Assembly (NCBI GenBank): GCA_035524275.1
Contig: DATKPC010000103.1
Coordinates: 1 to 55,229 of the forward strand
Length of the DNA stretch: 55,229 nucleotides
Direction of reading: 5' to 3'
From: Burkholderiaceae bacterium
GTDB taxonomy: Bacteria; Pseudomonadota; Gammaproteobacteria; Burkholderiales; Burkholderiaceae_F
A program made the position numbers and the translations under genes. Every line of letters begins with the position of its first letter. The stretch's first letter is position 1. Positions 1,531 to 35,781 of this stretch are shown one piece after another. Below the pieces are notes generated by a model, which ran no database searches, had not been told where the DNA came from, and worked only from the letters and a program-made list of their open reading frames with translations.

Positions 1531-2196
1531 GGCTGATTTCCTCTCCGTAGAAAAAGCGTAAGAACTTGGCGCCGTGGAGAATCAAGGCAAGTTGCGTACC
1601 ACACCGCGATTGCCCCGAATCGGGGCGCTCGCCGCACGAAATCGATGGCAAGTGCACCGGAGATGAAAGTCATTGCACCAACTTGGAGTACGCCATCGCG
1701 GGACCGTGGGATGCGCGGTCGGAAATCTCGGATGTGCGGAGCGCCCGAGTCGCGCAGCGACGATAGGACGCCCCAAGCGCGTGCGTCGGGAAACGCCGGA
1801 GTCGCCGGGGTCTAGGGTGACTTGCCGCTGGCGGGCGACGACGCGCGGACTGGTTTCGGGCTGGCCGATGCCGCCACGTCCGCGCGATTCCAGCGGCCGC
1901 CAACGAGCCTCGGGTTGAGCGTCGCGGTGCCCGCCAAACGACGGGCCTGTGCCGTCACGCGGTCGACGATCGCCTGCGGGTCGGCCTGCTGCGCATGGAG
2001 GAGCGCGAGGTGGCTGACCGAACCCGGCTCGTGCGCCTTGCGCGCGCGTTCCAGGCTTCGTTCGGCGGCGCGCTCGGCGCCGCGTTGGATTTTTCGCTCG
2101 CCGCGGCCTAACCTCCGGCAGCGCGTTCGGCGCCGAGCTGCCCGCAAGTGGCGGCAAGCGTCATCCGGCCTGGCGCCGGCCCTAGGAGACGACACG

Positions 2197-7140: not shown

Positions 7141-7174
7141 CTCGTGCGTGGCGACGGCGACGCGATGCGCCGCG

Positions 7175-8716
7175 TCAGTCCGGCGGCAGGATATAGCTCC
7201 ATGTCTCCGAGATCGTATCGATGCCGCTGCGCAGGAACGCGCGCAGTTCCACCGGTTTCTGTTCGTCGGCGCGCCGCACGCGCAACGTCATCCGCACGCC
7301 CCCGGTGACGCCATTGCGCTCGACGCGGCTTTCGATTATCTCGCCGTTCGCGTCGGCCCAGGTGCTGGGGTTCAGCGCGGCCTCGTCGACCTGCTTCAGC
7401 GCCGGTCCCTCGAAATCGATCGTGAACACGGTGCTCGGCCGCTCCTTGGCCGCTGCCGGCTGCTCGTCGGCCAGCGTGTGCCCGAAGCCGCGCCGGCTCT
7501 GCATGACCCACGATGACGGCGGATGACGCTCGGCCGCCTTCTGCCACAGCAGCCGGTACTCGAACTCGTAGGGTTCGCGCGGATGCGGCGGCGTGTCCGG
7601 CATCCAGTACGCGACGACGTTGTCGTTGGTTTCGTCGGGCGACGGGATCTGGACCAGTTCGACGCGACCGCTGCCCCAGGCGCCCTTCGGCTCGACCCAC
7701 ACCGAAGGCCGCAGGTCGTAGCGCGCGTCGAGCTCCTCGTAGCTCGAAAAACGGCGGTCGCGCTGCATCAGTCCGAAGCCGAGCGGGTTGGTCTGCGCGA
7801 ACGAGGTCACCAGCAGGCGCTTGGGGTTCACGAGCGGCCGCCAGATCCATTCGCCGGTCCCGGCCTGGATCGACAGGCCCTGCGAGTCGTGGACCTCGGG
7901 GCGGTAGTCCTCGCGGACGGAACGCTGGTTGGTGCCGAAATAGAACATGCTCGTGAGCGGAGCCAGCCCGAGCTTGGTGACGTTTTCGCGCAGGAAGATG
8001 CGGGCGCGGATCTCCATGACGAGATCGTCCCCGGGCTTCAGCACGAAGCGGTAGGCGCCGGCCGCGCGCGGCGAATCGAGCAGCGCGTAGATGACGAGTT
8101 CCTTCGCCCCCGGCGCCGGACGCTCGATCCAGAACTCGTTGAAGCGCGGGAATTCCTCGCCGGAGATGAGCGCGGTGTCGATCGCGAGTCCGCGCGCGGA
8201 GGCGCCGTAGACCTGGCCCTTGCCGAGCGCACGGAAATAGCTGGCGCCCAGGAACGCGACGATCTCGTCCTTGTACGTCGGCTTGTTGATCGGGTAGTGG
8301 ACGCGGAAGCCCGCGTAGCCGAGGTCGTGCCACTGCGACGGATCGAGCTGGCGGTTCGAGCCGTAGCTGAAGGCGGTCGGATCGAAGCGGATCGGCTTCA
8401 CCGTGTCGGCGTTGACCTCGTTGATCTTCACCGGATCCGCGAAATAGCGCCCGGGATGGAAGAACTCCAGCTCGAACGGCAGCCCGCCGCCGCGCCACCA
8501 CGCGCGCTCCGGCTTGTAGCGGATCTCGCGGTACTGCTCGTAGGCGAGATCGCGCAGCGCGTCAGGCAGCTTCGCCTCCGGCTTCCGGTACGGCTGGTTC
8601 GACAGCGCGCGCGCGCGTTCGACGACCTGGTCGAAGCCGAACGCCGATGCGACGACCGGGACGGCGACGAGCGTGGCAATCAGCGGGGCGAGGAGCGCAG
8701 CCGTGGGGAGTCGCAT
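7175..8716 (-). CDS. opgG: Glucans biosynthesis protein G (OpgG/MdoG), periplasmic, ~513 aa from MRLPTAALLAPLIATLVAVPVVASA.
   Basis: Signal peptide followed by the conserved MdoG family sequence. The opgGH operon order is conserved. The track ORF extends 38 codons further upstream, but the signal peptide begins at this Met. Confidence 0.88.
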   Translation of the reverse strand: MRLPTAALLAPLIATLVAVPVVASAFGFDQVVERARALSNQPYRKPEAKLPDALRDLAYEQYREIRYKPERAWWRGGGLPFELEFFHPGRYFADPVKINEVNADTVKPIRFDPTAFSYGSNRQLDPSQWHDLGYAGFRVHYPINKPTYKDEIVAFLGASYFRALGKGQVYGASARGLAIDTALISGEEFPRFNEFWIERPAPGAKELVIYALLDSPRAAGAYRFVLKPGDDLVMEIRARIFLRENVTKLGLAPLTSMFYFGTNQRSVREDYRPEVHDSQGLSIQAGTGEWIWRPLVNPKRLLVTSFAQTNPLGFGLMQRDRRFSSYEELDARYDLRPSVWVEPKGAWGSGRVELVQIPSPDETNDNVVAYWMPDTPPHPREPYEFEYRLLWQKAAERHPPSSWVMQSRRGFGHTLADEQPAAAKERPSTVFTIDFEGPALKQVDEAALNPSTWADANGEIIESRVERNGVTGGVRMTLRVRRADEQKPVELRAFLRSGIDTISETWSYILPPD

Positions 8717-8921
8717 CGGGAAGGGAGTGTCGTTTGAACGCGGAGCCTGCCGCTGCCGCGCGGCAGATGCAGCGGGCCGAGGATTGTAGGTCCTCGCCCG
8801 ACCGATTGCTGCAACGCGATCGATTCGCATCGTCGTAGCGCCTATGCGTTAAGCCATCCGGCCGGCCCTCGGCCTCGAGGCCGCATTCCCGCCGGAGCGA
8901 CTACCGCGTTCGACCCATCCG

Positions 8922-10190
8922 GTGCGTCGCTGGCCGGGGTTCGACGCGGGGGAACGGGCTAACCTGCGGCGCGTGCAACTCGATTTCCTGCCGTCGTGGC
9001 CCCCGGTCTGGCCGAGCATGGTCGCCCTCGGCGTCCTGGCCTTCCTTTCGCTTGCGCTCGGCGAATTCGCGGCGCGCGTGCTGCGCCTGCCGCGGATGCT
9101 GGGCTACCTGGCGGCCGGCGCGCTGTTCGGGGCCGGCGGGCAGGTGCTCGACGGCCTGCAGATCGAAGGCCCGCCGCGGCGCACGCTCGACCTGGCGCTG
9201 GATTTCGCGACCGCCTTCGTGCTGTTCGACCTCGGCCATCGGGTCTCGTTCGGCTGGCTTCGGCGCAATCCGGCGCTGATCGCCTCGAGCCTCGCGGAGT
9301 CGACGGCGACGTTCCTGCTGGGCTTCGCGTCGCTGCGGTGGTGCGGGCTCGCGACGCTGCCGGCCGCGCTGCTGGGGGCCGTCTCGATCGCGACCTCGCC
9401 CGCGATCGTCCTGTCGATCACGCGCGAGCTGCGGACGCAGGGCCAGGTGACCGAGCGCACGCTGCTCCTCACCGCGCTCAACTGCATCTACGCGATCGTC
9501 GTCTCGACGCTGATGCTGGCGTGGGCCCACTTGCAGTACCGCGGGACGCTCGGCGCCTACGTGCTGCAGCCGCTGTATCTCGTCATCGGGTCGGCCGTGC
9601 TCGCGGCGGTCGCGGCGCGCATCCTCGTCGCGGTACTGGCCACGGCGGTCGAGCGCGATCGCGGCGCGCAGATCATGACGATGCTGGCGCTCGTCGCGAT
9701 CGTCTTCGGCGTCGCGCAGGCGCTGCGGCTGTCGCATCTGCTCACGCTCCTGGCGTGCGGCGCGTTCGTCCACATGTTCGACCGGCGGCGCCGGCTCGCC
9801 GGGACGGAATTCGGGGTGATGTCGTCGTTCGTTCTCGTGCTGTTCTTCGCGTTGTCGGCGGCCACCGCCGACTTCGACGCGACCACGCTCGCCTGGGGGC
9901 CGGCGCTCGTCCTGGTCGCCGTGCGGATCGCCTGCAAGGTCGGTGGCGTCGCCGCGTTCGCCCGCCTGAGCGGCGTGCGGACGCGACAAGGGATCTGGAA
10001 CGGCGTCGCGCTGGCGCCGATGTCGACGTTGGCGCTGCTGCTGGCGCGCCAGGTCGGCCTGGCCGACGCCAAGCTGGGCGCGCAGATGCAGTCGGTCCTC
10101 GTCGTCGCCGTCGTCGTGCTGCAGGTCGGCGGCGCGCTGGCGCTCACCCGCGCGTTGCGGGCCACCGGGGAGGCCCGCGGCACGCCATGA
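8922..10190 (+). CDS. Cation:proton antiporter (CPA1/CPA2, Na+/H+ exchanger family) membrane protein, ~390-422 aa.
   Basis: About 11-12 predicted TM helices, with an MLGYLAAGALFG-type N-terminal helix typical of Na+/H+ exchanger family proteins. The alternative start is Met at 9018. The stop overlaps the ybdK start (ATGA). Confidence 0.7.
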   Translation: MRRWPGFDAGERANLRRVQLDFLPSWPPVWPSMVALGVLAFLSLALGEFAARVLRLPRMLGYLAAGALFGAGGQVLDGLQIEGPPRRTLDLALDFATAFVLFDLGHRVSFGWLRRNPALIASSLAESTATFLLGFASLRWCGLATLPAALLGAVSIATSPAIVLSITRELRTQGQVTERTLLLTALNCIYAIVVSTLMLAWAHLQYRGTLGAYVLQPLYLVIGSAVLAAVAARILVAVLATAVERDRGAQIMTMLALVAIVFGVAQALRLSHLLTLLACGAFVHMFDRRRRLAGTEFGVMSSFVLVLFFALSAATADFDATTLAWGPALVLVAVRIACKVGGVAAFARLSGVRTRQGIWNGVALAPMSTLALLLARQVGLADAKLGAQMQSVLVVAVVVLQVGGALALTRALRATGEARGTP

Positions 10191-14601: not shown

Positions 14602-14786
14602 ACCCCCGGCTCGCGGGTACGGCCCGCGGCAGCGGGCTGCCGTTCGTGCGCAATGAGACGCGTTTCGTGCGGCCGGCCGCCTTGTTGCGGCGCACTCTCA
14701 CTAAGTTCGCCACGAACGACGCCGTCGCCGCGGCGCCGCGCGCGCGGCGTCGGGATCGACGCAAGAACACGGAGGAGGCAGTCGAG

Positions 14787-15653
14787 ATGATTCCCGCGGG
14801 GTTCGAGTACCACGCCCCGAGGTCGGTCGACGCGGCCCTGAAGCTGCTCGGCGACCTCGGGCCCGACGCGAAGCTGCTGGCGGGCGGCCACAGCCTGCTG
14901 CCGATGATGAAGCTGCGGTTCGCGCAGCCTTCGCACCTCGTCGATCTCGGCCGCATCGCGGAACTGCGCGGCATCGCGCACGTCGGCGACGAGATCCGGA
15001 TCGGTGCGATGACGACCGAGAACGACCTGCTGCGTTCCGCGCTGCTTGCCGAAAAGGTGCCGCTGCTCGTCGAGGGCGCCGGCTGGATCGCGGATCCGCA
15101 GGTCCGCTACAAGGGGACCATCGGCGGCGACATCTCGCACGGCGATCCGGGCAACGACCACCCGGCGCTGATGCTGGCGCTGGACGCGTCGTTCGTCCTG
15201 GCGGGCCCGTCGGGCGAGCGCGTCGTCAAGGCCGACGGCTATTTCCTCGGCCTCTACGCGACGCTGCTGGAGCCGGGCGAGATCCTGACGCAGGTGCGCG
15301 TGCCGATCCCGCCCGCCGGCAGCGGCTGGTCCTACCAGAAGCTCAAGCGCAAGACCGGCGACTTCGCGACCGCGGCGACCGCGGTGCAGCTGCAGCTGGC
15401 CGGCGGAAGGATCGCCAAGGTCGGCATCGGACTGACGAACGTCGGCGCGACCGCGCTGAAGGCGCGTGCGGCCGAAGACTTCCTGGCTGGCAGGGCCCTC
15501 GACGAAACGGCGCTGCGCGAGGCGGCCCGCCTCGCGATGTCGATCTGCGAGCCGATGGCCGACCTGCGCGGCGACGCCGAGTACAAGACCGCGATGTGCG
15601 GCGAGATGACGCGGCGGGCGCTGCAGGCCGCGCACCAGCGCGCCCGCGCGTAG
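14787..15653 (+). CDS. coxM: Molybdo-flavoprotein (CO dehydrogenase / xanthine dehydrogenase family) FAD-binding medium subunit, 288 aa.
   Basis: [21 protein letters not shown]… is the FAD-binding PCMH domain of CoxM/CutM. A GGAGGAGG RBS lies 8 nt upstream. Confidence 0.88.
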
Positions 15654-15670
15654 GAAGCGAGGAAACGACG

Positions 15671-16156
15671 ATGTCGACGACGCAGAAAGTCACGTTCACC
15701 CTCAACGGCAAGCCGGTGACGACGGACGTGGAGCCGCGCGAGCTGCTGATCCACACGTTGCGCGAGAAGCTGGCGCACACCGGGCCGCACATCGGCTGCG
15801 AGACCTCGCATTGCGGCGCCTGCACGGTCGACCTCGACGGCATGTCGGTGAAGGCCTGCACCGTGCTGACCGTCCAGTGCGACGGCGGCGCGATGCTGAC
15901 GGTCGAGGGGCTCGAGCAGGGCGGCGCGCTGCACGCGATCCAGCAGGCGTTCCACGAGGAGCACGGGTTGCAGTGCGGGTACTGCACGCCGGGGATGATC
16001 ACGCGCGCCTACCGCCTGCTGAAGGAGAACCCGGACCCGTCGGAGCAGGAGATCCGCTTCGGCCTGGCCGGCAACCTCTGCCGCTGCACCGGCTACCAGA
16101 ACATCGTGAAGGCGGTCCAGTCCGCCGCGCGCAGGCTCGCGGCGATGCCCGCGTAG
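15671..16156 (+). CDS. coxS: [2Fe-2S] iron-sulfur small subunit of the Mo-hydroxylase (CoxS/CutS), 161 aa.
   Basis: Two 2Fe-2S motifs ([11 protein letters not shown]… and CGYCTPGMI…CRCTGYQNI). Confidence 0.9.
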
Positions 16157-16208
16157 CGGCCCGTCGCCGCGGCGCTCGACCCCACCTTCCACGTATCGGA
16201 GAACCCCG

Positions 16209-18614
<2,406 letters not shown>

Positions 18615-18630
18615 GCGGCGGCGCGACGCG

Positions 18631-19290
18631 ATGAAAGTGGAACTCGAGCGCAGCTATCCGATGCCGGGGTCGGCCGACGCCGCCTGGACGCTGCTGCAGG
18701 ATATCGAAGGCGTGGCCGCCTGCATGCCCGGGGCGCGGATCACCGAGCGGATCGACGCGCAGCGCTACAAGGGCACGGTGTCGGTCCGGTTCGGCCCCGC
18801 CAGCATGTCGTTCCGCGGCGAGGTCGAGGTGAGCGGGATCGATCCGGCCGGCCGCGCGCTGCGCCTCGCGGGCAAGGGAACCGACACGACGGGCGGCTCG
18901 GCGGCATCGATGGAGCTGCAGGCCCGCGTCGTGCCGGTCGACGCGTCGAGCTGCACGCTGGTCGGCACGAGCGAGATGACGATGAGCGGCAAGGCCGCGA
19001 CGTTCGGCGGCCGCATGGCGGGCTCGGTCGCGGACCAGGTGCTGAAGCAGTTCGCCGCGAACTTCGCCGCGAAGCTGCAGGCGCTGCCGCCGGCGCCGCC
19101 GGCGGCCGTCGACACGACGCCCATCGCGTCGTCGCCCATCGCGACGTCGCCGAATGCGGCCGCGCCCGCGCCGGCGCCCGCCGTGGCGCCCTCGCAGGGG
19201 CCCGCGCCGGCGCCGATGAACGGCCTCGCGCTGGCCTGGGCGATCATCAGGGACTGGCTGCGCTCGCTCTTCGCATCGAAGCCGACATGA
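18631..19290 (+). CDS. coxG: CoxG-like SRPBCC-family accessory protein with a C-terminal Pro/Ala linker and a hydrophobic membrane anchor, 219 aa.
   Basis: MKVELERSYPMPGSADAAWTLLQDIEGVAACMPGA… is the typical CoxG N-terminus. Its start overlaps the coxL stop region, and its stop overlaps the coxD start (ATGA). Confidence 0.78.
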   Translation: MKVELERSYPMPGSADAAWTLLQDIEGVAACMPGARITERIDAQRYKGTVSVRFGPASMSFRGEVEVSGIDPAGRALRLAGKGTDTTGGSAASMELQARVVPVDASSCTLVGTSEMTMSGKAATFGGRMAGSVADQVLKQFAANFAAKLQALPPAPPAAVDTTPIASSPIATSPNAAAPAPAPAVAPSQGPAPAPMNGLALAWAIIRDWLRSLFASKPT

Positions 19291-20180
19291 GCGACGCCCG
19301 CGGCGACGAGATCGCCGCGTTCCGGCGCGATCTCGCGGTCGCCGGCTACATCGCGGAGCCGGCCCTCGTCGCGGCGCTGCTGCTGATGCAGGACCTCGGT
19401 CGACCGCTGCTGCTGGAGGGCGACGCCGGCGTCGGCAAGACCGAAGTCGCGAAGGTCCTGGCGGCGCGGCGCGACACGCGGCTGATCCGGCTCCAGTGCT
19501 ACGAAGGGCTCGACGCGCATTCGGCGATCTATGAATGGAACTACCAGCGGCAGCTGCTCGCGATCAAGCTGCTGGAGCACGACGACCGCGGCATGCCGCA
19601 GAAGGAGCAGGACATCTTCTCGGAGCGCTACCTGCTGGCGCGGCCGCTGCTGGAGGCGATACGCTGCGCGGTGCCCCCGGTCCTGCTGATCGACGAGGTC
19701 GACCGCGCCGACGAGGCGTTCGAGGCGTACCTGCTGGAGATCCTGTCGGACTTCCAGCTGTCGATCCCGGAACTCGGGACGGTCCGGGCGACGACGCGGC
19801 CGCTCGTCGTCATCACGTCCAACGGCACGCGCGAGCTTTCCGACGCGCTGCGGCGCCGCTGCCTGTACCAGTACATCGACTATCCGGACTACGAGAAGGA
19901 ACTCGCGATCGTCCGCGCCAAGGCGCCCGATGCCGGGCCGGACCTGGCGCGCCAGGTCGTCGCGTTCGTCCAGGGCGTGCGCCGGATGGAACTGCAGAAG
20001 CGCCCCGGCATCGCCGAGACGCTCGACTGGACCGCGGCGCTGCTGCGGCTCGGGGTCTCGACGATCGATGTCGACGGTGCCGAGCGCATCCTGCAGACGC
20101 TGGCTGCCCTCGTGAAGACGCGCGACGATCGCGCCGCGTTTCCGCGCGAGGTCGTCGCGCGCCTGGCGGCGGCATGCTGA
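19287..20180 (+). CDS. coxD: MoxR-type AAA+ ATPase CoxD, 297 aa.
   Basis: Walker A GDAGVGKT, Walker B LLIDEVDRA, MoxR-family architecture. Confidence 0.85.
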   Translation: MSDARGDEIAAFRRDLAVAGYIAEPALVAALLLMQDLGRPLLLEGDAGVGKTEVAKVLAARRDTRLIRLQCYEGLDAHSAIYEWNYQRQLLAIKLLEHDDRGMPQKEQDIFSERYLLARPLLEAIRCAVPPVLLIDEVDRADEAFEAYLLEILSDFQLSIPELGTVRATTRPLVVITSNGTRELSDALRRRCLYQYIDYPDYEKELAIVRAKAPDAGPDLARQVVAFVQGVRRMELQKRPGIAETLDWTAALLRLGVSTIDVDGAERILQTLAALVKTRDDRAAFPREVVARLAAAC

Positions 20181-24790: not shown

Positions 24791-24876
24791 CCCGGCCCTC
24801 GGTGCCCCGCGCCCGGATGCACATCGTTGCGTTGCCCGTCGGGCGGCGGCACCCGATTAGAACTCCGCCGGCGGGC

Positions 24877-28050
<3,174 letters not shown>

Positions 28051-28210
28051 GTTGCGCGATCGCTCGTCCGACAGGGCAAGGCCATGCGCTTGCCCCTGAG
28101 TCTGTCAAGGTTACCCCGGACGTCTGGGCCGTGATCGGCCGGCGTCCGGGGTTTTAGCCTCCCTTTTGTTCCGCGGGGTTCGCGTCGTGGCGCGCTGCAC
28201 CGCAGCGACG

Positions 28211-28762
28211 TTACCCGCCGCCGCGCGCCGCCTCGGCGTCGGCACGTCCGGTGTGGCGGGTTGATACCGCCGCCAGGATGCCGCGCAGCAGGTCGCGCGG
28301 CGGCGGCGGGCAGCCGGGAATCGCGACGTCGACCGGGATCACGTGGGCGATCCGCCCGCGGCAGGCGTAGCTCTCGCCGAACACGCCGCCATCGCAGCCG
28401 CAGTCGCCGACGGCGACCACCAGCACGGGCTGCGGCGCCGCATCGTAGGTCCGGCGCAGCGCGGCCTCCATGTGGCGCGAGACCGGCCCGGTCACCAGGA
28501 GCATGTCGGCGTGCCGCGGGCTCGCGACGAAGCGGATCCCGAGGCCTTCGAGGTTGTAGTACGGATTGTTCAGCGCGTGGATCTCGAGCTCGCAGCCGTT
28601 GCACGAGCCGGCGTCGACCTGCCGGATCGAGAGCGCGCGGCCGACGATGGCGAGCAGCTCGCCGCGGATCCGCGCCTCGTCGCGCCGCCAGGCCTCGTTC
28701 GCCTCCGGCGCGGGCTCGGTCACCAGCCCGACGCGGGCCACCTGTCGCAACAGCTGCCACAT
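28211..28762 (-). CDS. NuoB / HycG-like small subunit of a group-4 [NiFe]-hydrogenase-related complex, 183 aa, retaining [4Fe-4S] ligands.
   Basis: SCNGCE…GDCGCDGG…PGCPP motifs are the NuoB-family proximal-cluster ligands. The start ATG overlaps the stop of the large-subunit gene (TGATG). Confidence 0.8.
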   Translation of the reverse strand: MWQLLRQVARVGLVTEPAPEANEAWRRDEARIRGELLAIVGRALSIRQVDAGSCNGCELEIHALNNPYYNLEGLGIRFVASPRHADMLLVTGPVSRHMEAALRRTYDAAPQPVLVVAVGDCGCDGGVFGESYACRGRIAHVIPVDVAIPGCPPPPRDLLRGILAAVSTRHTGRADAEAARGGG

Positions 28763-30324
28763 CAGAGATCGTGTCCGGAATAGCTGAGGTTGAAGGATTT
28801 GTTGATCAGCGGGAAGTCGGGGACGATGTTGTCGATCACCGCATGCTCCAGCACCGGCCAGTTGCGCCACGACGGATCGCTGAGGTGGCAGCGCCGGATC
28901 GCTCCCGACGGCGCGAGTTGAAGCGCGACGAGGATCTCGCCGCGCCAGCCCTCGACCCATCCGGCGCCGGCGCCGGCGCGCCCGATGTCGCCGACCGTCG
29001 CGAGCCGCGCGCCCTGCGGCAGCCCGCGCGCGATGTCGCGAATCAGCTGCAGCGACGATCGCAGCTCCGCGAACCGGACTTCGGCGCGGGCCGCGACGTC
29101 GCCGGCCGCGGCACTCGCGGCGCGCACCGCGAGCCGGTCGTAGGGCGGATGCGGATGGTCCGCGCGCAGGTCGCGCGCGATGCCGCTCGCGCGCCCCGCC
29201 AGCCCACAGAGGCCCAGCCGGGTCGCCAGCGGCGTCGCGACGCGACCGGTGCCGATGAACCGGTCCTGCAGCCCCGGATGCTCCTCGAAGATCGCATGCA
29301 GCCGCTCGACCTGCGGCTCCAGCGCATCGCATTGGGCGGCGAGGCGAGCGGCGGCGGCGGCGTCGAGGTCGACGCAGGTGCCGCCCGGCACGATGCGGTC
29401 CATCAGCAGCCGATGCCCGAACAGTTCGCCGTTGAGGCGCAGCCAGTCCTCCCTGAGCCGCGAGAATTGGGCCAGGCCGAACGCCAGCGCGACGTCGTTG
29501 GCCAGCGCGCCGAGGTCGCCGAGGTGGTTGGCAACCCGCTCGCGCTCCAGCAGCAGGCCGCGCAGCCAGGCGGCGCGATCCGGGACGGCGACGCCGGTCG
29601 CCGCCTCCAGCGCCATGCAGGTGGCCCACGCGTAGGCCACCGTCGAGTCGCCGCAGGCGCGCCCCGCGATGCGGTGCGCATCGAGCGGCGCGGTGCGTTC
29701 CATCAGCTGCTCGATTCCCTTGTGCACGTAGCCGAGGCGTTCTTCGAGCCGCAGGACCTTTTCGCCGACGACCGAGAACCGGAAATGACCCGGCTCGATG
29801 ATGCCGGCATGCACCGGCCCGACCGCGATCTCGTGGACGCCGTCGCCTTCGACGGTGACGAAGCGGTAGGGCTCCGGCTTCGCCGCCGGGACCGGCGCTG
29901 ATGACTCGCCTTCGCCGCGGCGCAGCGGGAAATAGCCGGCGGGCCACGCGTCATGCCGCAGCCAGGGCCGCTGGTCGGCGCTGCCGGCGGCGACGACGCC
30001 GGCCAGGTCGCGCGCCGCGCGCTGCATCCGGAGCGCCGCTGGGAAAAGCCGTGACACGTCCGGGTAGTCCGGATGCGAGGGCGCGAGCGCGAGCGTGATC
30101 CACGCGAGGCCGCCGGCGAACGCATAGGCCGCATGGACCGCCGGATCGCCTCCTTCCGTCGTTCCGCCCCACAGCGCGACGAGGCGTCCGCTGGCGCGGG
30201 CCGCTTCGGCCGCCGCCGTCCACTCCGCGGCGTCGACCGTGGCGCGCCCGATCGGCAGCGGCGCGTCCGTCGCCTCGAGCGCGATCGCGAGGCCGTCGAT
30301 GCGGTCGAAGCGGGGCGCCGGCAT
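28762..30324 (-). CDS. Fused NuoC-NuoD-like large subunit (HycE/HyfG-like) lacking the NiFe-binding cysteines, 520 aa.
   Basis: N-terminal NuoC-like domain, then a NuoD/hydrogenase large-subunit domain (GPVHAGIIEPGHFRF…LEERLGYVHKGIE). The L1 motif is RACGDS (hydrogenases RxCGxC). The C-terminal L2 is DPSWRNW (hydrogenases DPCxxC). Only 1 of 4 Ni-Fe Cys ligands remains. GGAGG lies 8 nt upstream. The start overlaps the hyfF-like stop. Confidence 0.85.
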   Translation of the reverse strand: MPAPRFDRIDGLAIALEATDAPLPIGRATVDAAEWTAAAEAARASGRLVALWGGTTEGGDPAVHAAYAFAGGLAWITLALAPSHPDYPDVSRLFPAALRMQRAARDLAGVVAAGSADQRPWLRHDAWPAGYFPLRRGEGESSAPVPAAKPEPYRFVTVEGDGVHEIAVGPVHAGIIEPGHFRFSVVGEKVLRLEERLGYVHKGIEQLMERTAPLDAHRIAGRACGDSTVAYAWATCMALEAATGVAVPDRAAWLRGLLLERERVANHLGDLGALANDVALAFGLAQFSRLREDWLRLNGELFGHRLLMDRIVPGGTCVDLDAAAAARLAAQCDALEPQVERLHAIFEEHPGLQDRFIGTGRVATPLATRLGLCGLAGRASGIARDLRADHPHPPYDRLAVRAASAAAGDVAARAEVRFAELRSSLQLIRDIARGLPQGARLATVGDIGRAGAGAGWVEGWRGEILVALQLAPSGAIRRCHLSDPSWRNWPVLEHAVIDNIVPDFPLINKSFNLSYSGHDL

Positions 30325-31790
30325 CAGGAACCTCCGATCAGCTGCGCGGCGCTGCGCCACCATGCGCCGAGGTACGGCGGGACGTAGAGTCCCAGCATCA
30401 GCGCGAGGCCGAGGTGGACGAAGATCGGCAGCAGCGCCGGCGCGTGCGGCAACGCGCGAACGCTGGGCTCGCCGAAGGCCATTTCCTGCACCTTCGAGAA
30501 CACCGCCGCGAACGCGACCGCGAGCGCGAGCAGCAGCAGCGGCGCCGCCCACGGCAGCTCGCGCATCGTGGTCGTCAGGATCAGGAACTCGCTCGCGAAG
30601 ACGCCGAAGGGCGGCATGCCGAGGATCGCGACGGTGCCGACGACGAGCCCCCAGCCGACGGTCGGGTTCGACTTCACGAGGCCGCGGATGGACTCCATCA
30701 GCTGCGTTCCGGCCTTCTGCGCCGCATGTCCGGCCGCGAAGAAGATCGACGACTTGACCAGCGAATGCACGGTCATGTGCAGCAGGCCGGCGAACGTCGC
30801 GACCGGGCCGCCGATCCCGAAGGCGAACGTCATCAGGCCCATGTGCTCGATCGACGAGTACGCGAAGAGCCGCTTGATGTCGCGCTGTCGCATCAGGAAG
30901 AACGACGCGCTGACGACCGACAGCAGTCCGAAGCCGACCATCAGGCTGCCGGCGAGGTGGTTGTGCAGCGCGCCGTCGGCAAGGACCTTGCTGCGCAGCA
31001 CCGCATAGAGCGCGACGTTCAGCAGGAGCCCGGAGAGGACCGCGGAGATCGGCGTCGGGCCTTCGGCGTGGGCATCCGGCAGCCAGTTGTGCACCGGGAC
31101 GAGGCCGACCTTCGTGCCGTAGCCGAGCATCAGGAAGACGAACGCGAGCGAAAGGATGTTCGGTTCCAGGCGGTCCTTGACGGCCTCCAGGTTGCTCCAC
31201 AGCAGCGCGCCGCCGCCGGGCCCGATGACCCGCTCGGCGGCGAGGAACAGCAGGATCGTCCCGAACAGCGCCTGCGCGATGCCGACCCCGCAGAGGATGA
31301 AGTATTTCCACGCGGCTTCGAGGCTGGCGGCGGTCCGGTAGACGCTCACCAGCAGCACGGTCGCCAGCGTCGCGGCCTCCATGGCGACCCACAGGATGCC
31401 GACGTTGTTCGTCGTCAGCGCCAGCAGCATCGTGAACGTGAAGAGCTGGTACATGCTGTGGTAGAGGCGCATCCGCGGCGGCGTCATGCGCCCGTGGTCC
31501 TGCTCGATGCGCATGTAGGGGATCGAGAACAGCGCCGTCGTCAGGCCGACGAAGGCGGTCAGCGCGACCAGGAAGACGTTGAGCGGGTCGATCAGGAAGG
31601 CCTGCCCGAAATGGAAGCCCGGGCCGTCGGCGACGACGCGCGCGACGAGCGCCGCGGCGGCCGCCAGCGTCGCGGCGCTGAAGCCGGCGTTGACGGCCGC
31701 AGCGGCGCGGCGCGCGCCGATCACGCCGAGCGTCGCGGCGCCGGCGAGCGGGATGGCGAGGAGGACGGCGAGGCCGTCGATCTCATTCAT
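30324..31790 (-). CDS. NuoN/NuoM-like antiporter-type membrane subunit (HyfF-like), 488 aa.
   Basis: About 14 TM helices with conserved complex-I antiporter-like core motifs (…WLPDAHAEGPTPISA…). Confidence 0.82.
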   Translation of the reverse strand: MNEIDGLAVLLAIPLAGAATLGVIGARRAAAAVNAGFSAATLAAAAALVARVVADGPGFHFGQAFLIDPLNVFLVALTAFVGLTTALFSIPYMRIEQDHGRMTPPRMRLYHSMYQLFTFTMLLALTTNNVGILWVAMEAATLATVLLVSVYRTAASLEAAWKYFILCGVGIAQALFGTILLFLAAERVIGPGGGALLWSNLEAVKDRLEPNILSLAFVFLMLGYGTKVGLVPVHNWLPDAHAEGPTPISAVLSGLLLNVALYAVLRSKVLADGALHNHLAGSLMVGFGLLSVVSASFFLMRQRDIKRLFAYSSIEHMGLMTFAFGIGGPVATFAGLLHMTVHSLVKSSIFFAAGHAAQKAGTQLMESIRGLVKSNPTVGWGLVVGTVAILGMPPFGVFASEFLILTTTMRELPWAAPLLLLALAVAFAAVFSKVQEMAFGEPSVRALPHAPALLPIFVHLGLALMLGLYVPPYLGAWWRSAAQLIGGS

Positions 31791-32400
31791 CCTTCAGCCT
31801 CTCGAGGTGCTGGATGTCGAGGCTGTCGAACTGTTCGCGGATCTGGAACATGAAGACGCCGAGGATCAGCAGCCCGACGAGGACGTCGAGCGCGATGCCG
31901 AGCTCGACGACCATCGGCATGCCGTAGGTCGCCGCGGTGGCGGCGAAGAACAGCGCGTTTTCCATCGACAGGAAGCCGATCACCTGCGGCACCGCCTTCG
32001 CCCGCGTGATCATCATCATGAACGACAGCAGCACGCACGCCAGCGCGATGCCGAGCGAGCCGCCGGCCACCGACGAGGTCAGGCGGGCGATCGGCGCCGC
32101 GAGGTTGAAGGAGAAGACGACGAGCACGATCCCGATCAGCATCGTCGTCGGGATGTTGATGAGGGTCTCGACGTCCCACTTGACGTCGAGGCGGTCGATC
32201 AGCCGGTGCAGCGCCACCGGCAGCGCGACGACCTTCAGCAGCAGCGTGACGAGCGCCGAGAAGAACAGGTGCGGCTGTCCGGTCGCGCGCGCGACGAGCG
32301 CGGTGGCCAGCGCCAGCGCCAGGCCCTGCAGCGTGAAGAGCCGGATCAGCAGCAGCACGCGGCGCTGCGACAGCATCGCGAAGGCGAGCAGCAGCAGCAC
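31783..32400 (-). CDS. HyfE-like small membrane subunit of hydrogenase-4-type complexes, 205 aa.
   Basis: Six predicted TM helices. Size and position (between the NuoH-like and NuoN-like genes) match hyfE in hyf operons. Confidence 0.65.
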   Translation of the reverse strand: MLLLLAFAMLSQRRVLLLIRLFTLQGLALALATALVARATGQPHLFFSALVTLLLKVVALPVALHRLIDRLDVKWDVETLINIPTTMLIGIVLVVFSFNLAAPIARLTSSVAGGSLGIALACVLLSFMMMITRAKAVPQVIGFLSMENALFFAATAATYGMPMVVELGIALDVLVGLLILGVFMFQIREQFDSLDIQHLERLKDE

Positions 32401-32443: not shown

Positions 32444-33397
32444 TCAGGCTCCCAGCAGCAGGTGGACCAGCATCCCGAGCACCGCGAGCAGGAACGCGGT
32501 GGCGAGGAACTCCGGGACGCGGAAGACGCGCATCTTGGCGCTCGTCGCCTCGACCAGCGCGAGCGCGGCGCCGCCGATCGCGAGCTTCAGCAGCAGCACC
32601 GGGATCGCGAGCACGAGGGCCAGCGGCTCGCCGGCCTCGGCGACGCCCCACGGGAAGAACAGCGCCAGCCCGATGCACGAGTACGCGAAGAGCTTGAGGC
32701 TCGCGGCCCACTCCAGCAGCGCCAGGTGGCGCCCCGAGTACTCCAGGACCAGCGCCTCGTGGATCATCGTGAGCTCGAGGTGCGTCGACGGATTGTCGAC
32801 CGGGACCCGGGCGTTTTCCGCCAGCGACACCATCGTGAAGGCGACGCCGGCGAACGCCAGGCTGGGATAGATCGCGAACTCGCGGTGCGCGAGCGACCCG
32901 ACGATCTGGGTCAGCGACGTCGATTGCGTGATCAGCGACGCGGAGAACAGCACCGTGAGCAGCGCCGGTTCGGCCAGGAAGCCGACCAGCATCTCGCGCC
33001 GCGCGCCGAGCGTGCCGAACGCCGTGCCGATGTCCATCGCGGCGAGCGATATGCACATGCGCGCGACGCTGAAGAGCCCGACGAGCGCGATGGCGTCGGC
33101 CGCCGGCGCCAGCGGCAGATCGGTCGACAGCGTCGGCACGATCCCGCAGGACAGCGCCATGCAGCCGAAGACGACGTACGGCGCGCCGCGGAACAGCGGC
33201 GAGGCGTTGTCGGCGACGACCGCCTCGCGCGCGAACAGCTTGCGCAGCGTCCGGTACGGCTGCAGCAGGCTCGGCGCCGAGCGGTTCAGCAGCCACGCGC
33301 GGCACTGGTTGACCCACCCGCTGAGCAGCGGCGCGAGCAGCAGCGCGAGCGACAGCTCGAGCAGCTGCGCCGCGGCGCCGGTCCAGCTCAGTCCCAT
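32444..33397 (-). CDS. NuoH-like membrane subunit (HycD/HyfC-like), 317 aa.
   Basis: Starts MGLSWTGAAAQLLELSLALLLAPLLSGWVNQ…, typical of the HycD/NuoH family. Its start overlaps the stop of the preceding NuoL-like gene by 8 nt. The track ORF (1088 aa) has a long Arg-rich spurious N-terminal extension. Confidence 0.85.
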   Translation of the reverse strand: MGLSWTGAAAQLLELSLALLLAPLLSGWVNQCRAWLLNRSAPSLLQPYRTLRKLFAREAVVADNASPLFRGAPYVVFGCMALSCGIVPTLSTDLPLAPAADAIALVGLFSVARMCISLAAMDIGTAFGTLGARREMLVGFLAEPALLTVLFSASLITQSTSLTQIVGSLAHREFAIYPSLAFAGVAFTMVSLAENARVPVDNPSTHLELTMIHEALVLEYSGRHLALLEWAASLKLFAYSCIGLALFFPWGVAEAGEPLALVLAIPVLLLKLAIGGAALALVEATSAKMRVFRVPEFLATAFLLAVLGMLVHLLLGA

Positions 33398-35394
33398 GAT
33401 CGGATCACCATCAGCATCGCGAGCAGCGTCAGGAAGCTGTAGAGCAGGTAGACCGAGATGCGGCCCTGCTGCAGCGCGGAGAACCGGCGGGCGATGCGCT
33501 CGACCACGGCGGCGATCGGCAGGTACAACGCGTGCCAGGCATGGTCCTCGATCGTCACGCGATAGCGCGGCTGCGCGTCGAACGGCGTCGGCAGGACGCG
33601 CTCGAGGCGGAAGAACGGCTCGAAGATCTGCCGGATCGGCTGCCCGAAGCCCTCGGCGGTGTCCTGCATGCGCGCGCCGAGCGCCCCGAAGCCGCAGTCC
33701 CACGGCGCGCTGCGCCGCAGCTTTTCGTGGAAGGCCCGGCGCACGACGAGCCAGGCCGCCGCGCAGCCGCCGCCGACGACGACGAGAAAGACGAGCGGCC
33801 CGTAGCTGGCGCGCGCAACCGAGGTGGGCACGAGCAGCAGCCAGCCGTGCGCGCGTGCCGCCTCGCCGATGCCGGATCCGACGAGCACGCGGGTCACCGG
33901 GTCGATCGCCGCGATCAGCGGGACCGGGAAGAGGCCCACCGCGAGCCCGCAGGCGACGAGCCAGGCGAGACCGGCGCGTTCCCACGGCCGGGCGTCGCGA
34001 GCCTGTGCCAGTGCCGGCTCGCGCGGCTGGCCGAGGAAGACGACGCCGAAGAACTTCACCATCACGTAGCCGGCCAGCGCCGAGACGAGCGCCACCGCGG
34101 CGGCCCCGACGGGCACGAGCATGCTCAGGTACGCCGGTGGCAGCTGCGGGCTGAAGAGGAAACCCTGCAGCAGCAGCCACTCGGAGACGAAGCCGCCGAG
34201 CGGCGGCAGGCCGGCGCTCGCCAGCGCGCCGAACAGCATCGTCCAGGCGACCCACGGCATCGGCCGCACGAGCCCGCCGAGCCGGCCGAGGTTGCGCTCG
34301 CCGGTCGCATGCAGCACCGAGCCGGTGCCGAGGAACAGCAGGCTCTTGAACAGCGCATGGCTGGCGACGTGGTAGAGCGCGGCCGTGAGCGCGAGCGCGG
34401 CCGGGACGACCATGCCATGGGCCTTGAAGAGGATCGCGAGCCCGATGCCGGCGAGCAGCAGGCCGATGTTCTCGATCGAGGAATAGGCGAGCAGCCGCTT
34501 CATGTCGGTCTGCACCGCGCTGAACAGCACGCCGAAGATCGCCGTCAGGAGCCCGAGCGCGAGCAGCAGCGCGCCCCACCACCAGGGCTGCATCGGGAGC
34601 ACGTCGAACGTGATTCGCAGCAGCCCGTAGATCGCCGTCTTCAGCATCACGGCGCTCATCAGCGCCGAGACCGGCGACGGCGCCGCCGGGTGCGCTTCGG
34701 GCAGCCAGACGTGCAGCGGCACGGCGCCGGCCTTCGCGCCGAAGCCGGCGAGCGCGAGCAGGAACGCGGCGCCCGCCCAGGCCGGCGCGAGCTGCTGCGC
34801 CCGCAGGTTGGCGAACGTGTAGTCGCCGGTGTTGGCCTGCAGGACACCGAAGCACAGCAGCAGCGCGATCGCGCCGACGTGCGCCATCAGCAGGTAAAGG
34901 AAGCCGGCGCGCCGGATCTCGGCGATCCGGTGGTTCGCGATGACGAGGAAGTAGGACGAAAGCGCCATGGCCTCCCACAGCACCATGAACGCGAAGGCGT
35001 CGTCGGCGACGAGCAGCAGCGCCATGCTGGCGAGGAACGCGTGGTATTCGAGGCACAGCAGGCCCGGCGGCGTGCCTTCGCCGTGGCGGAAGTAGCCGGC
35101 CGCGAACGCCGAAATGCCCACCGTGGTTACGCCGAGCACGGCGAGGAAGAACGCCGAAAGGCTGTCGAGCCGCAGGTGGAACGGCAGCTGCGGCAGCCCG
35201 ATCGGCAGCACCGCGACCTCCGGCGTCGCGAAGATCGCCGACCCGGCGACGACGGCCAGCGCGAGGCCGCCCGCGGCGCCGAGCGGGAAGAGGACCTGCG
35301 CGACGATGCGGAAGCGGCGCAGCCACGCCAGCCCGAGGAACCCGATCACCAGCCATGCGGCGGCGATCGCGAGGATCCAGTCGAGGTGGAGCAC
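33388..35394 (-). CDS. NuoL-like antiporter-type membrane subunit (HyfB/HycC-like), 668 aa, GTG start.
   Basis: About 16-17 TM helices with conserved NuoL/HyfB core (…WLPEAHPAAPSPVSALMSAVMLK…). It is the first structural gene of the operon. Confidence 0.85.
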   Translation of the reverse strand: MLHLDWILAIAAAWLVIGFLGLAWLRRFRIVAQVLFPLGAAGGLALAVVAGSAIFATPEVAVLPIGLPQLPFHLRLDSLSAFFLAVLGVTTVGISAFAAGYFRHGEGTPPGLLCLEYHAFLASMALLLVADDAFAFMVLWEAMALSSYFLVIANHRIAEIRRAGFLYLLMAHVGAIALLLCFGVLQANTGDYTFANLRAQQLAPAWAGAAFLLALAGFGAKAGAVPLHVWLPEAHPAAPSPVSALMSAVMLKTAIYGLLRITFDVLPMQPWWWGALLLALGLLTAIFGVLFSAVQTDMKRLLAYSSIENIGLLLAGIGLAILFKAHGMVVPAALALTAALYHVASHALFKSLLFLGTGSVLHATGERNLGRLGGLVRPMPWVAWTMLFGALASAGLPPLGGFVSEWLLLQGFLFSPQLPPAYLSMLVPVGAAAVALVSALAGYVMVKFFGVVFLGQPREPALAQARDARPWERAGLAWLVACGLAVGLFPVPLIAAIDPVTRVLVGSGIGEAARAHGWLLLVPTSVARASYGPLVFLVVVGGGCAAAWLVVRRAFHEKLRRSAPWDCGFGALGARMQDTAEGFGQPIRQIFEPFFRLERVLPTPFDAQPRYRVTIEDHAWHALYLPIAAVVERIARRFSALQQGRISVYLLYSFLTLLAMLMVIRSWD

Positions 35395-35421
35395 GGCCGA
35401 CGCCTGCGGGAAGCCGGCGCC

Positions 35422-35622
35422 TCAGCGCGGGCGCGCGCCGCGCGCCGCGCTCGCGAGCCACGCCGGCAGCTTGCGGCCGTCGGCGTGGGCCACGATGTAT
35501 TCGCGGATCAGCTGGCGCACGACCTGCGACGGCGTGAGGTCCTGCGCGGCGCAGATCTCCTCGAAGAGCTGCTTCTTCCGCGGATCGATGAGGAGTGTCA
35601 GCCGGGCGGTCTTGTTTTCCAT
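35422..35622 (-). CDS. Small ribbon-helix-helix (CopG/Arc/MetJ-like) DNA-binding protein, 66 aa.
   Basis: MENKTARLTLLIDPRKKQLFEEICAAQDLTPSQVVRQLIREYI has a beta-strand/helix/helix pattern typical of RHH regulators. It is encoded immediately upstream of, and co-directional with, the hydrogenase-like operon. The track ORF is 28 codons longer. Confidence 0.55.
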   Translation of the reverse strand: MENKTARLTLLIDPRKKQLFEEICAAQDLTPSQVVRQLIREYIVAHADGRKLPAWLASAARGARPR

Positions 35623-35632
35623 CGGAGGTCTT

Positions 35633-35680
35633 CGGGCGGTCGGGCGGTCGGGAAAGCGTCGGGCGGTCGGGAAAGCGTGT
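35633..35680. promoter_or_regulatory. Tandem direct repeats (GTCGGGCGGTCGGGAAAGC ×2 plus a partial third) in the divergent promoter region between the RHH gene and the arginase gene.
   Basis: Seen directly: …ttcgggcggtcgggcggtcgggaaagcgtcgggcggtcgggaaagcgtg… It is a candidate operator array for the RHH protein (inference). Confidence 0.4.
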
Positions 35681-35781
35681 GCACCGCATGGTAATGATAT
35701 TTTCATTCAAGGCAAATAGGATGCGACTACCTGGCGCCGCGCCCCTGGCCGGCCGCGGGCGTTCCGGGTTACATTGCGCCG

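Follow-up and report, generated by a model that had tools for sequence, protein, structure and literature searches.

Ehr complexes, described as Ech-hydrogenase-related in Geobacter sulfurreducens (GSU0739-45; Coppi 2005) and later as energy-converting hydrogenase-related (Marreiros et al. 2013, BBA 1827:198), are the closest described relatives of the locus analysed here. This locus is a six-gene operon within a 55,229-nucleotide stretch of DNA from a Burkholderiaceae bacterium (GenBank assembly GCA_035524275.1, contig DATKPC010000103.1; the whole stretch is hereafter called the window), and the gene of primary concern, at positions 28762-30324 on the minus strand, encodes its large subunit. 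The favoured reading, held with a probability of roughly 0.6, is that the operon encodes an Ehr-type six-subunit membrane complex that is derived from group 4 [NiFe] hydrogenases, lacks Ni-Fe/H2 chemistry and couples a redox reaction to ion translocation. The Ehr family has been known since 2005, and the gene in the window is an ordinary member of it.

Operons of this kind have been reported under several names. In Sulfobacillus, a six-gene cluster contains homologues of nuoH, nuoL, hyfE and hyfB without the binding motifs (PMC4378227), while hyfBCEFGI operons of Nitrospira and Acidithiobacillus have been described as encoding a putative group 4 hydrogenase; the hyf-like operon of Nitrospira has been re-classified as Ehr in the literature. 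An association between formate dehydrogenase and Ehr has been hypothesized in Margulisbacteria (PMC6349859). Among Geobacter proteomes, all Ehr subunits were detected in G. sulfurreducens and were more abundant on formate, with the role of the complex never investigated (PMC7894505), and for Geobacter KN400 a 2026 paper considers Ehr to be 'already nonfunctional' (PMC13194489). A literature search found no biochemical or structural study of any Ehr complex. The complexes are widespread, occurring in Burkholderiales, Rhodocyclales (including Accumulibacter), Gallionella, Nitrospira, Geobacter, Binatia and Actinobacteria. Annotation as hydrogenase 3/4, formate hydrogenlyase or NuoC is a routine error for them, and predictions of H2 metabolism from genomes and metagenomes are consequently inflated.

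Gene content and organization of the operon

The six genes are tightly packed on the minus strand in a hyfB-C-E-F-G-I-like order, with the large subunit as the fifth:

33388..35394, minus strand: HyfB/NuoL-like antiporter-like subunit, 668 amino acids, with an ND3-like C-terminal extension (Pfam Proton_antipo_M, 2.9e-56)
32444..33397, minus strand: HyfC/HycD/NuoH-like membrane anchor, 317 amino acids (Pfam NADHdh, 9.3e-33; 33% identity to HycD)
31783..32400, minus strand: HyfE-like small membrane subunit, 205 amino acids (NCBIfam PRK11492 'hydrogenase 4 membrane subunit', 7.8e-20, below cutoff)
30324..31790, minus strand: HyfF/NuoN-M-like antiporter-like subunit, 488 amino acids (Pfam Proton_antipo_M, 1.6e-51)
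28762..30324, minus strand: large subunit, EhrL-like, without NiFe ligands (NuoC-like at residues ~1-150, NuoD/HycE-like at residues ~165-520)
28211..28762, minus strand: NuoB/HycG-like small subunit, 183 amino acids, with four Cys for one [4Fe-4S] cluster (Pfam Oxidored_q6, 4e-30; 43% identity to HycG)

The HyfB-like protein scores 891 bits against NCBIfam PRK06521 ('hydrogenase 4 subunit B'; cutoff 667) and the HyfF-like protein 864 bits against PRK06458.1-5 ('hydrogenase 4 subunit F'; cutoff 543). The HyfE-like protein gives a weak BLAST match to E. coli HyfE and is kept in all related loci that cover its position. All six reading frames are intact, with stops overlapping starts. The large subunit corresponds to exactly one minus-strand open reading frame (ORF) of 520 amino acids (ATG at 30324, TGA at 28764-28762), preceded by GGAGG 8 nt 5' of the ATG; its start shares 1 nt with the stop of the upstream gene (TGATG), and its stop shares 1 nt with the ATG of the small subunit. 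These overlaps indicate translational coupling.

From the E. coli hydrogenase 4 set hyfABCDEFGHIJR, only homologues of B, C, E, F, G and I are present. Searches by tblastn found no homologue of E. coli HycF, HyfH or NuoI in the 55-kb window, and likewise detected none of NuoA, NuoJ or NuoK. No hyp- or hycI-like gene was found among the window ORFs scanned (large ORFs, with Pfam) or among the recurrent flanking genes of related loci, though such genes could lie elsewhere in the genome.

The large subunit had been described in an earlier note on this DNA as a fusion of NuoC- and NuoD-like parts, and this description is borne out by its domains, sequence matches and fold. Pfam recognizes Complex1_30kDa (residues 29-136), NiFeSe_Hases (202-268) and Complex1_49kDa (288-439); the protein reaches no curated NCBIfam cutoff for NuoD, NuoCD or a hydrogenase large subunit. 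The top match among PDB sequences by HMMER is E. coli HycE (7z0s_E; E=4e-60, 31% identity), followed by Nqo4, NdhH and MbhL at 1e-22 to 1e-25, and identity to E. coli NuoCD is 23%. An AlphaFold2 (AF2) monomer model, used for global fold comparison only, has a predicted local distance difference test score (pLDDT) of 80 and a predicted template modelling score (pTM) of 0.85; its template modelling (TM) score is 0.79 against HycE (7z0s_E) and 0.71-0.76 against E. coli NuoCD. Apart from one identical ENA entry, the protein is at most 68% identical to any other database entry, and its homologues are annotated at source as "NADH-quinone oxidoreductase subunit C", "Ni,Fe-hydrogenase III large subunit" or "formate hydrogenlyase subunit 5".

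Loss of the NiFe ligands

Three segments of the large subunit define the state of the former metal site:

29644..29661, minus strand: former L1 motif, R222-A-C224-G225-D226-S227 (R-x-C-G-x-C in hydrogenases), from HMMER and MAFFT alignments
28843..28878, minus strand: conserved pre-L2 element, D483-PSWRNWPVLE-H494, common to hydrogenases and NuoD
28765..28794, minus strand: true L2 equivalent at the C-terminus, F511-N512-L-S514-Y-S-G517-H-D-L520-stop ([DE]-[PL]-C-x-x-C-x-D-R in hydrogenases)

Two independent alignments, one by HMMER and one by MAFFT that took in E. coli HycE, HyfG and NuoCD, place G221-R-A-C224-G-D226-S227 opposite R-V-C241-G-I-C244 of HycE. At the other end of the protein, K-S-F-N512-L-S514-Y-S-G517-H-D-L520-stop aligns with G-S-L-D529-P-C531-Y-S-C534-T-D-R537 of HycE, and the nearest true hydrogenases read KSF-ELCY[AS]C-x-DR. 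Relative to HycE, Cys531 has become Ser514, Cys534 has become Gly517, the canopy Asp (D529) is Asn512 and the terminal Arg (R537) is Leu520. The segment DPSWRNWPVLEH (residues 483-494) pairs with AATYANWPTLRY of HycE, TPSFAHLQQIPA of E. coli NuoCD and SASYANWPV of the nearest true hydrogenases, and by this alignment it lies before L2, as an element conserved across the whole superfamily, and is not L2 itself. The C-terminus ends without a tail like the 32-residue extension of HycE/HyfG (MAFFT alignment).

The count of three lost NiFe cysteines out of four given in the earlier note therefore holds, with only C224 left, and its L1 alignment, in which the first Cys is kept and the second is Ser, recurs in both alignments. 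Its account of L2 needs correction: both cysteines are indeed gone, but DPSWRNW was mistaken for the motif, and the replacements are Ser and Gly at the C-terminus rather than Ser and Asn. The orphan Cys to which it drew attention is present in this sequence but lacks significance across the family: 103 of the 120 close homologues have Ser at position 224 and the other 17 have Cys, and across the Cys-less clade the position toggles between S, A and C. Accordingly, the family consensus reads RVSGDS for L1 and NLSYSGHDL for L2. In the same 120 homologues R222, G225, D226, W233, N512, Y515, G517 and D519 are invariant, and the ending ...SYSG-x-DL-stop is universal (120/120); it also persists in relatives down to ~31-35% identity.

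Rescue of L2 by a frameshift or from another frame was considered and rejected. No R.CG.C...H or [DEN][PL]C..C..[HR] motif occurs in any of the six frames across the whole 55-kb window, which closes this escape; the stop of the gene overlaps the next start, and the C-terminus is the same across the family. This protein cannot bind a canonical NiFe centre. The proposal that it performs no H2 chemistry is supported: the enzyme is not H2-activating.

Evolutionary setting of the rebuilt site

Searches for homologues returned at least 8000 candidates. In the 120 close homologues, which are 62-68% identical to the query, more than 100 alignment columns are invariant and the rebuilt site is among them. 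A scan of 1.84 billion cluster representatives recovered 955 relatives below 1e-30, and the full-length sequences among the top 150 of these served as the sample for alignment. A larger set, at ~31-58% identity, carries R-x-[SAC]-G-D-[ST] together with NKSF-NLSY[SA]G-x-DL-stop, and a smaller Cys-bearing set carries ERxCGxC together with ELCY[AS]C-x-DR. A neighbour-joining tree rooted on NuoCD gathers the Cys-less sequences into a single cohesive group, with the query deep inside it, and places the Cys-bearing relatives between this group and HycE/HyfG. The sister group of the Cys-less clade is reported elsewhere to be group 4f. The more distant Cys-less relatives include proteins from Binatia and Candidatus Aquicultor (Actinobacteria), for which a cluster look-up gave no functional names; when 64 diverse Cys-less relatives were used as a profile, the search retrieved nothing but generically named betaproteobacterial proteins.

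The metal site has been rebuilt by very local change, comprising replacement of Cys by Ser, Ser and Gly, a new Asp226, exchange of Asp for Asn512 and of the C-terminal Arg for Leu. Positions were scored as discriminating when one residue was held by at least 85% of 72 Cys-less sequences and by at most 15% of 19 Cys-bearing ones. Only D226 (HycE I243), S514 (C531) and G517 (C534) separate the two groups in this way and 35 other positions are common to both, so the remodelling is ancient, extremely local and maintained by selection. D226 is invariant in the close homologues, is shared by 90% of the Cys-less clade as a whole and is never found in Cys-bearing relatives. In the Desulfovibrio fructosovorans hydrogenase the residue between the two L1 cysteines is the gas-tunnel gate (Val74), and the new Asp thus points at the former metal site.

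Conserved residues of the pocket, cluster and membrane arm

Functional residues of HycE, HycD and HycC, including the role of the β1-β2 loop Glu, were taken from the E. coli formate hydrogenlyase (FHL) structure paper (PMC9474812). The corresponding positions in the large subunit are as follows:

29779..29811, minus strand: β1-β2 loop, H172-AGIIEPGHF-R182, of hydrogenase type with the proton-relay Glu177 kept (aligned to HycE H188...D192/E193)
HycE E193, query E177: β1-β2 loop Glu
HycE H188, query H172: β1-β2 loop His
HycE R478, query R461: canopy Arg
HycE S283/H284, query N266/H267: canopy and proton path
HycE E437, query E420: proton path
HycE R395, query R378: proton path

H172 is invariant and E177 is present in at least 90% of the Cys-less alignment; both are also conserved in true hydrogenases. 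R461, N266/H267, E420 and R378, which complete the relay at the former active site, are strictly conserved as well. In the small subunit, C54, C57, C121 and C151 never vary among the 63-64 sequences covering each of these positions; they correspond in the alignment to the ligands of cluster G1 in HycG and N2 in NuoB. The motif SC54-N-G-C57E (SCNGCE) has the hydrogenase CxxC spacing as in HycG, whereas E. coli NuoB has tandem Cys-Cys. Consequently, the 'intact N2-type cluster motif' of the earlier note is intact in its four cysteines but is of hydrogenase and not of N2 type.

In the HyfC-like subunit, the E-channel residues R113, E135, E143, E194, E208 and E214 (HycD R108, E130, E138, E189, E203 and E206) are invariant in 52/52 sequences. 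The HyfB-like subunit conserves E141/K221, H235, K252, H342, H346, K350, E405 and the ND3-loop C567 in 57-64 of 64 sequences, and E138/K227, H241, H338, H342, K346 and E401 of the HyfF-like subunit are invariant in 73/73. Both antiporter-like subunits thereby retain the Glu/Lys pair of transmembrane helices 5 and 7, the central His/Lys residues and the Glu of helix 12. Such conservation is that of a working energy-coupling machine. The HyfC-like family also shows two peculiarities of its own. At the position of HycD E201, an ND1-type loop position occupied by Glu in HycD, HyfC and NuoH, it has an invariant His (H206; 52/52), and the position of HycD E199 is variable (A/E/D/S).

Distribution and genomic neighbourhood

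The identical six-gene order was found in 80 loci from Burkholderiales, Rhodocyclales and other groups, drawn from contigs at one genome per species and examined with 10-kb flanks. Their hosts include Ramlibacter, Rhodoferax, Polaromonas, Caldimonas, Ideonella, Methylibium, Accumulibacter, Aromatoleum, Georgfuchsia and Lysobacteraceae. Ramlibacter alkalitolerans KACC 19305, Aromatoleum toluvorans Td21 and Azoarcus sp. KH32C were identified as carriers that are in culture. The recurrent flanking genes, identified from sequence, are housekeeping in nature (metG, scpA, nadB and an apbC-like gene), and no conserved redox partner, dehydrogenase or maturation gene recurs in the flanks of the 80 loci. 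Flanks of 7/80 loci contain a small 2x[4Fe-4S] ferredoxin-like gene with weak similarity to HycF/NuoI (L009, 16590-16883; L059, 2189-2497; L066, 2624-2920; L063, 2936-3154; L053, 869-1159; L065, 860-1150; L064, 17810-18940). These genes are too rare for a subunit but could hint at the electron donor.

Identity to the window across the loci is ~65-85% for the membrane subunits (70-87% for HyfC-like, 66-80% for HyfE/F-like) as against 58-67% for the large subunit. The membrane arm is thus more conserved than the 'catalytic' large subunit, which is unusual if the chemistry sits in the latter.

A candidate regulator precedes the operon:

35422..35622, minus strand: ribbon-helix-helix gene, 66 amino acids, 28 nt upstream of the hyfB-like gene (Pfam RHH_9, PF19839, E=2.7e-33)

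By tblastn, an RHH_9 gene lies directly upstream of hyfB, co-directional or divergent, in 23/80 related loci; no mention of this candidate was found in the Ehr-related literature examined. No FNR-like or sigma-54-like consensus was found upstream of hyfB in 59 loci, the operon ends show neither sigma-70-like sites nor convincing terminators, and there are no Rfam matches in the window.

Function of the complex and alternative explanations

The complex is judged to be functional and not a hydrogenase, and it probably performs redox-coupled ion translocation. In the mechanism proposed, electrons would pass to the [4Fe-4S] cluster of the small subunit straight from either a low-potential soluble carrier or a dehydrogenase attached only loosely; given that there is neither a NuoI-type subunit nor a conserved partner, the cluster is probably addressed by ferredoxin, flavodoxin or such a dehydrogenase. 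A proton-coupled reaction would then occur in, or be gated by, the polar carboxylate-lined pocket, where Asp226 and Glu177 lie nearly at the sites of the Tyr and His quinone ligands of complex I. The resulting change in charge and protonation would be relayed via the E-channel to drive H+/Na+ translocation, and in the reverse mode an ion gradient would drive uphill electron transfer. As acceptor, a quinone is the foremost candidate and would be plausible for respiratory hosts, though without support from NuoD-type ligands. A bolder proposal, advanced tentatively and with well under even odds, is that the former NiFe pocket is a newly built proton-coupled active site or ion-binding site and that Ehr represents a second, independent route from hydrogenase to a quinone or small-acceptor oxidoreductase, or to a ferredoxin reductase driven by the proton-motive force. 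If this were true, three substitutions (Asp at the gate, Cys531 to Ser and Cys534 to Gly) would suffice to make a new site while the hydrogenase proton relay was kept, and Ehr would work without a NuoI-type subunit, its redox partner addressing the [4Fe-4S] cluster directly.

Several points weigh against the reading as a redox-coupled Ehr complex. The assignment to the Ehr class is made by matching the published description of such complexes. No donor, acceptor or activity has been shown for Ehr complexes in the literature, leaving the mechanistic part as inference. The AF2 model falls below pLDDT 50 at residues 153-202 and 493-520, with a wrong-looking helix where strands are expected, and this is exactly the pocket region. 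The NuoD-type quinone ligands are absent (Gly225, Glu177), and the hydrogenase-type CxxC in place of the tandem Cys of N2 weakens the idea of a quinone acceptor. Finally, a NuoI-like subunit is missing though one is found in every solved member of the superfamily (PMC9474812), so that the operon offers no explanation of how electrons would reach the cluster.

The earlier note had likened the protein to both NuoD and Ehr. The likeness to Ehr is upheld by the motif loss and the antiporter-like subunits, but the NuoD-type pocket is not: its suggested check for NuoD His/Tyr quinone ligands found neither. In the alignments, the invariant Gly225 is the counterpart of Y87 of Nqo4 (R-M-D-Y) and of the Tyr of E. 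coli NuoCD (R-I-E-Y). The loop His (Nqo4 H38 / NDUFS2 H95), which is structurally equivalent to the hydrogenase loop Glu (PMC9474812), corresponds here to Glu177, inside the hydrogenase-type loop HAGIIEPGHFRF, and the β1-β2 loop is two residues longer than in NuoCD. It is possible that the pocket accepts a quinone or another substrate. A complex-I-like quinone reductase, in which the former NiFe pocket binds quinone as in NuoD/NDUFS2 and the small-subunit cluster acts as N2, is nevertheless unlikely. It would agree with the fold match to NuoCD (TM 0.71-0.76), with the canopy Arg/Lys position, the H267/E420/R378 proton path and the E-channel, all common to complex I, and with the respiratory lifestyle of the hosts. 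Against this stand the residues at the Tyr and His positions and the longer loop, the presence of Asn512 for a canopy Asp that has been called strictly conserved (PMC9474812), the CxxC spacing, the lack of NuoI, NuoA, NuoJ and NuoK by tblastn, and the greater closeness of the large subunit to HycE (31%, 4e-60) than to NuoCD (23%). The lack of an electron-input module, NuoI-like subunit or partner gene conserved with the operon, the intact antiporter residues and the stronger conservation of the membrane subunits would instead suit a non-catalytic, Mrp-like cation/proton antiporter. Its peripheral arm would be a vestigial cap, or a sensor of redox state, O2 or NO in which the state of the [4Fe-4S] cluster gates antiport without net electron throughput. 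This, too, is rather unlikely; the proton-relay and canopy residues of the pocket, together with Asp226, are as conserved as in catalytic relatives, which would be unexpected for a mere cap.

Two further explanations retain the hydrogenase as starting point. The description of Ehr as 'already nonfunctional' (PMC13194489) and the absent Cys ligands would fit a decaying or pseudogenized group 4 hydrogenase, but the gene is intact, under selection and not decaying. Its operon has six intact frames with overlapping stops and starts and recurs in 80 genomes; residues of the catalytic periphery, cluster and channels are invariant in close homologues, with the core ones persisting at ~31-55% identity, and Ehr proteins are abundant in Geobacter proteomes (PMC7894505). 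Decay is effectively refuted by this conservation pattern and can be regarded as extremely improbable. A hydrogenase with an unconventional metal site, liganded by Cys224, Asp226, Ser and Glu, could draw on the one Cys in this sequence and on the retained hydrogenase-type β1-β2 loop and canopy Arg461. It is highly doubtful given that Cys224 is Ser in 103/120 homologues, that the L2 Arg (HycE R537) has become Leu520, that the C-terminal extension is absent and that no hycI/hyp-like gene occurs among the window ORFs scanned or the recurrent flanking genes. The Asp at the gas-tunnel gate position (Val74 in the D. fructosovorans hydrogenase) also speaks against it.

Annotation of Ehr complexes

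The Ehr large subunit can be diagnosed by the signature R-x-[SAC]-G-D-[ST] plus NLSY[SA]G-x-DL-stop. This signature, the corrected map in which L2 is the C-terminal NLSYSG-x-DL and not DPSW.NW, and the restriction of the differences from the sister hydrogenases to the metal site are useful for annotation and provide targets for mutagenesis; they do not in themselves reveal function.

Other features of the window

A sensor histidine kinase gene starts 161 nt downstream of the small-subunit gene, and an aerobic-type molybdenum hydroxylase cluster of the carbon monoxide dehydrogenase / xanthine dehydrogenase family lies ~8-10 kb from the Ehr operon:

24877-28050, minus strand: sensor histidine kinase, 1057 amino acids (Cache-like N-terminus, PAS, GAF, PAS, HisKA, HATPase_c)
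14646-20180, plus strand: molybdenum hydroxylase cluster as a whole
14646-15653, plus strand: FAD subunit
15596-16156, plus strand: ORF of a probable small Fe-S subunit
16209-18614, plus strand: molybdenum-cofactor large subunit
19287-20180, plus strand: AAA/MoxR-type ATPase of the cluster

A role for the PAS/GAF histidine kinase as a sensor linked to the operon was considered and rejected, as the kinase does not lie beside the operon in other genomes; its linkage is probably local. Ordinary neighbours occur at 1822-4479 (plus strand), 4552-8830 (minus strand) and 8922-10190 (plus strand), and comprise a MaeB-type malic enzyme-phosphotransacetylase fusion, genes for periplasmic glucan synthesis (an MdoG homologue together with a probably MdoH-like family-2 glycosyltransferase) and a Na+/H+ exchanger family protein. 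The window has ~70-75% G+C and contains very long spurious antisense and out-of-frame ORFs of up to 1110 amino acids, for example at 24802-28134 (plus strand), 28211-29947 (minus strand) and 32444-35710 (minus strand). ORF length alone is therefore misleading here, and real frames were told from spurious ones by a G+C content at third codon positions (GC3) above 0.85.

Comparison with known systems

The closest match is to Ehr itself. The large and small subunits are homologous to those of group 4 [NiFe] hydrogenases with the L1 and L2 cysteine motifs absent, and NuoL-like, NuoH-like and HyfE-like membrane subunits are clustered with a second antiporter-like subunit; nothing defining sets the locus apart, and the complex in the window appears as a betaproteobacterial-type member. 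The 'hyf-like' hyfBCEFGI operons of Nitrospira, Acidithiobacillus and Sulfobacillus have the same gene names and order, with motif loss stated for Sulfobacillus; their usual annotation is group 4 hydrogenase or formate hydrogenlyase. Some operons of this type lie near formate dehydrogenase or carbonic anhydrase genes, whereas no such partner is conserved here.

With HycE and the Hyf proteins of hydrogenase 4, the large subunit shares the fusion of NuoC and NuoD, the loop Glu, the canopy Arg and the H/E/R proton path, and the complex shares with E. coli FHL and Hyf the E-channel and the ND3-like extension with its conserved Cys. It differs in that its family consensus keeps none of the four NiFe ligands and a cleaved C-terminal tail is lacking; HycB/HycF/FdhF and HyfA/D/H/J/R do not accompany the operon, and no maturation gene was seen among the window ORFs scanned. 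Complex I (NuoCD/NuoB of E. coli; Nqo4/Nqo6 of T. thermophilus) resembles it in fold, in having a metal-free former NiFe pocket by a [4Fe-4S] cluster, and in the placement of pocket and cluster atop a NuoH-like subunit and antiporter-like pumps. Unlike complex I, the complex in the window lacks the Tyr/His quinone ligands, has CxxC in place of Cys-Cys and has no NuoI/A/J/K/E/F/G. Ehr can in this sense be placed as an intermediate design between hydrogenases and complex I.

MBS/Mbx complexes differ in possessing a NuoI-like subunit that binds ferredoxin and a considerably larger number of Mrp-type subunits. The MBS/Mbx system of Pyrococcus furiosus (6U8Y) is also far more distant in sequence (1.5e-16) and has other pocket residues, but it offers a parallel in that it, too, is a descendant of group 4 hydrogenases in which hydrogenase chemistry has been lost and redox-coupled ion translocation retained.

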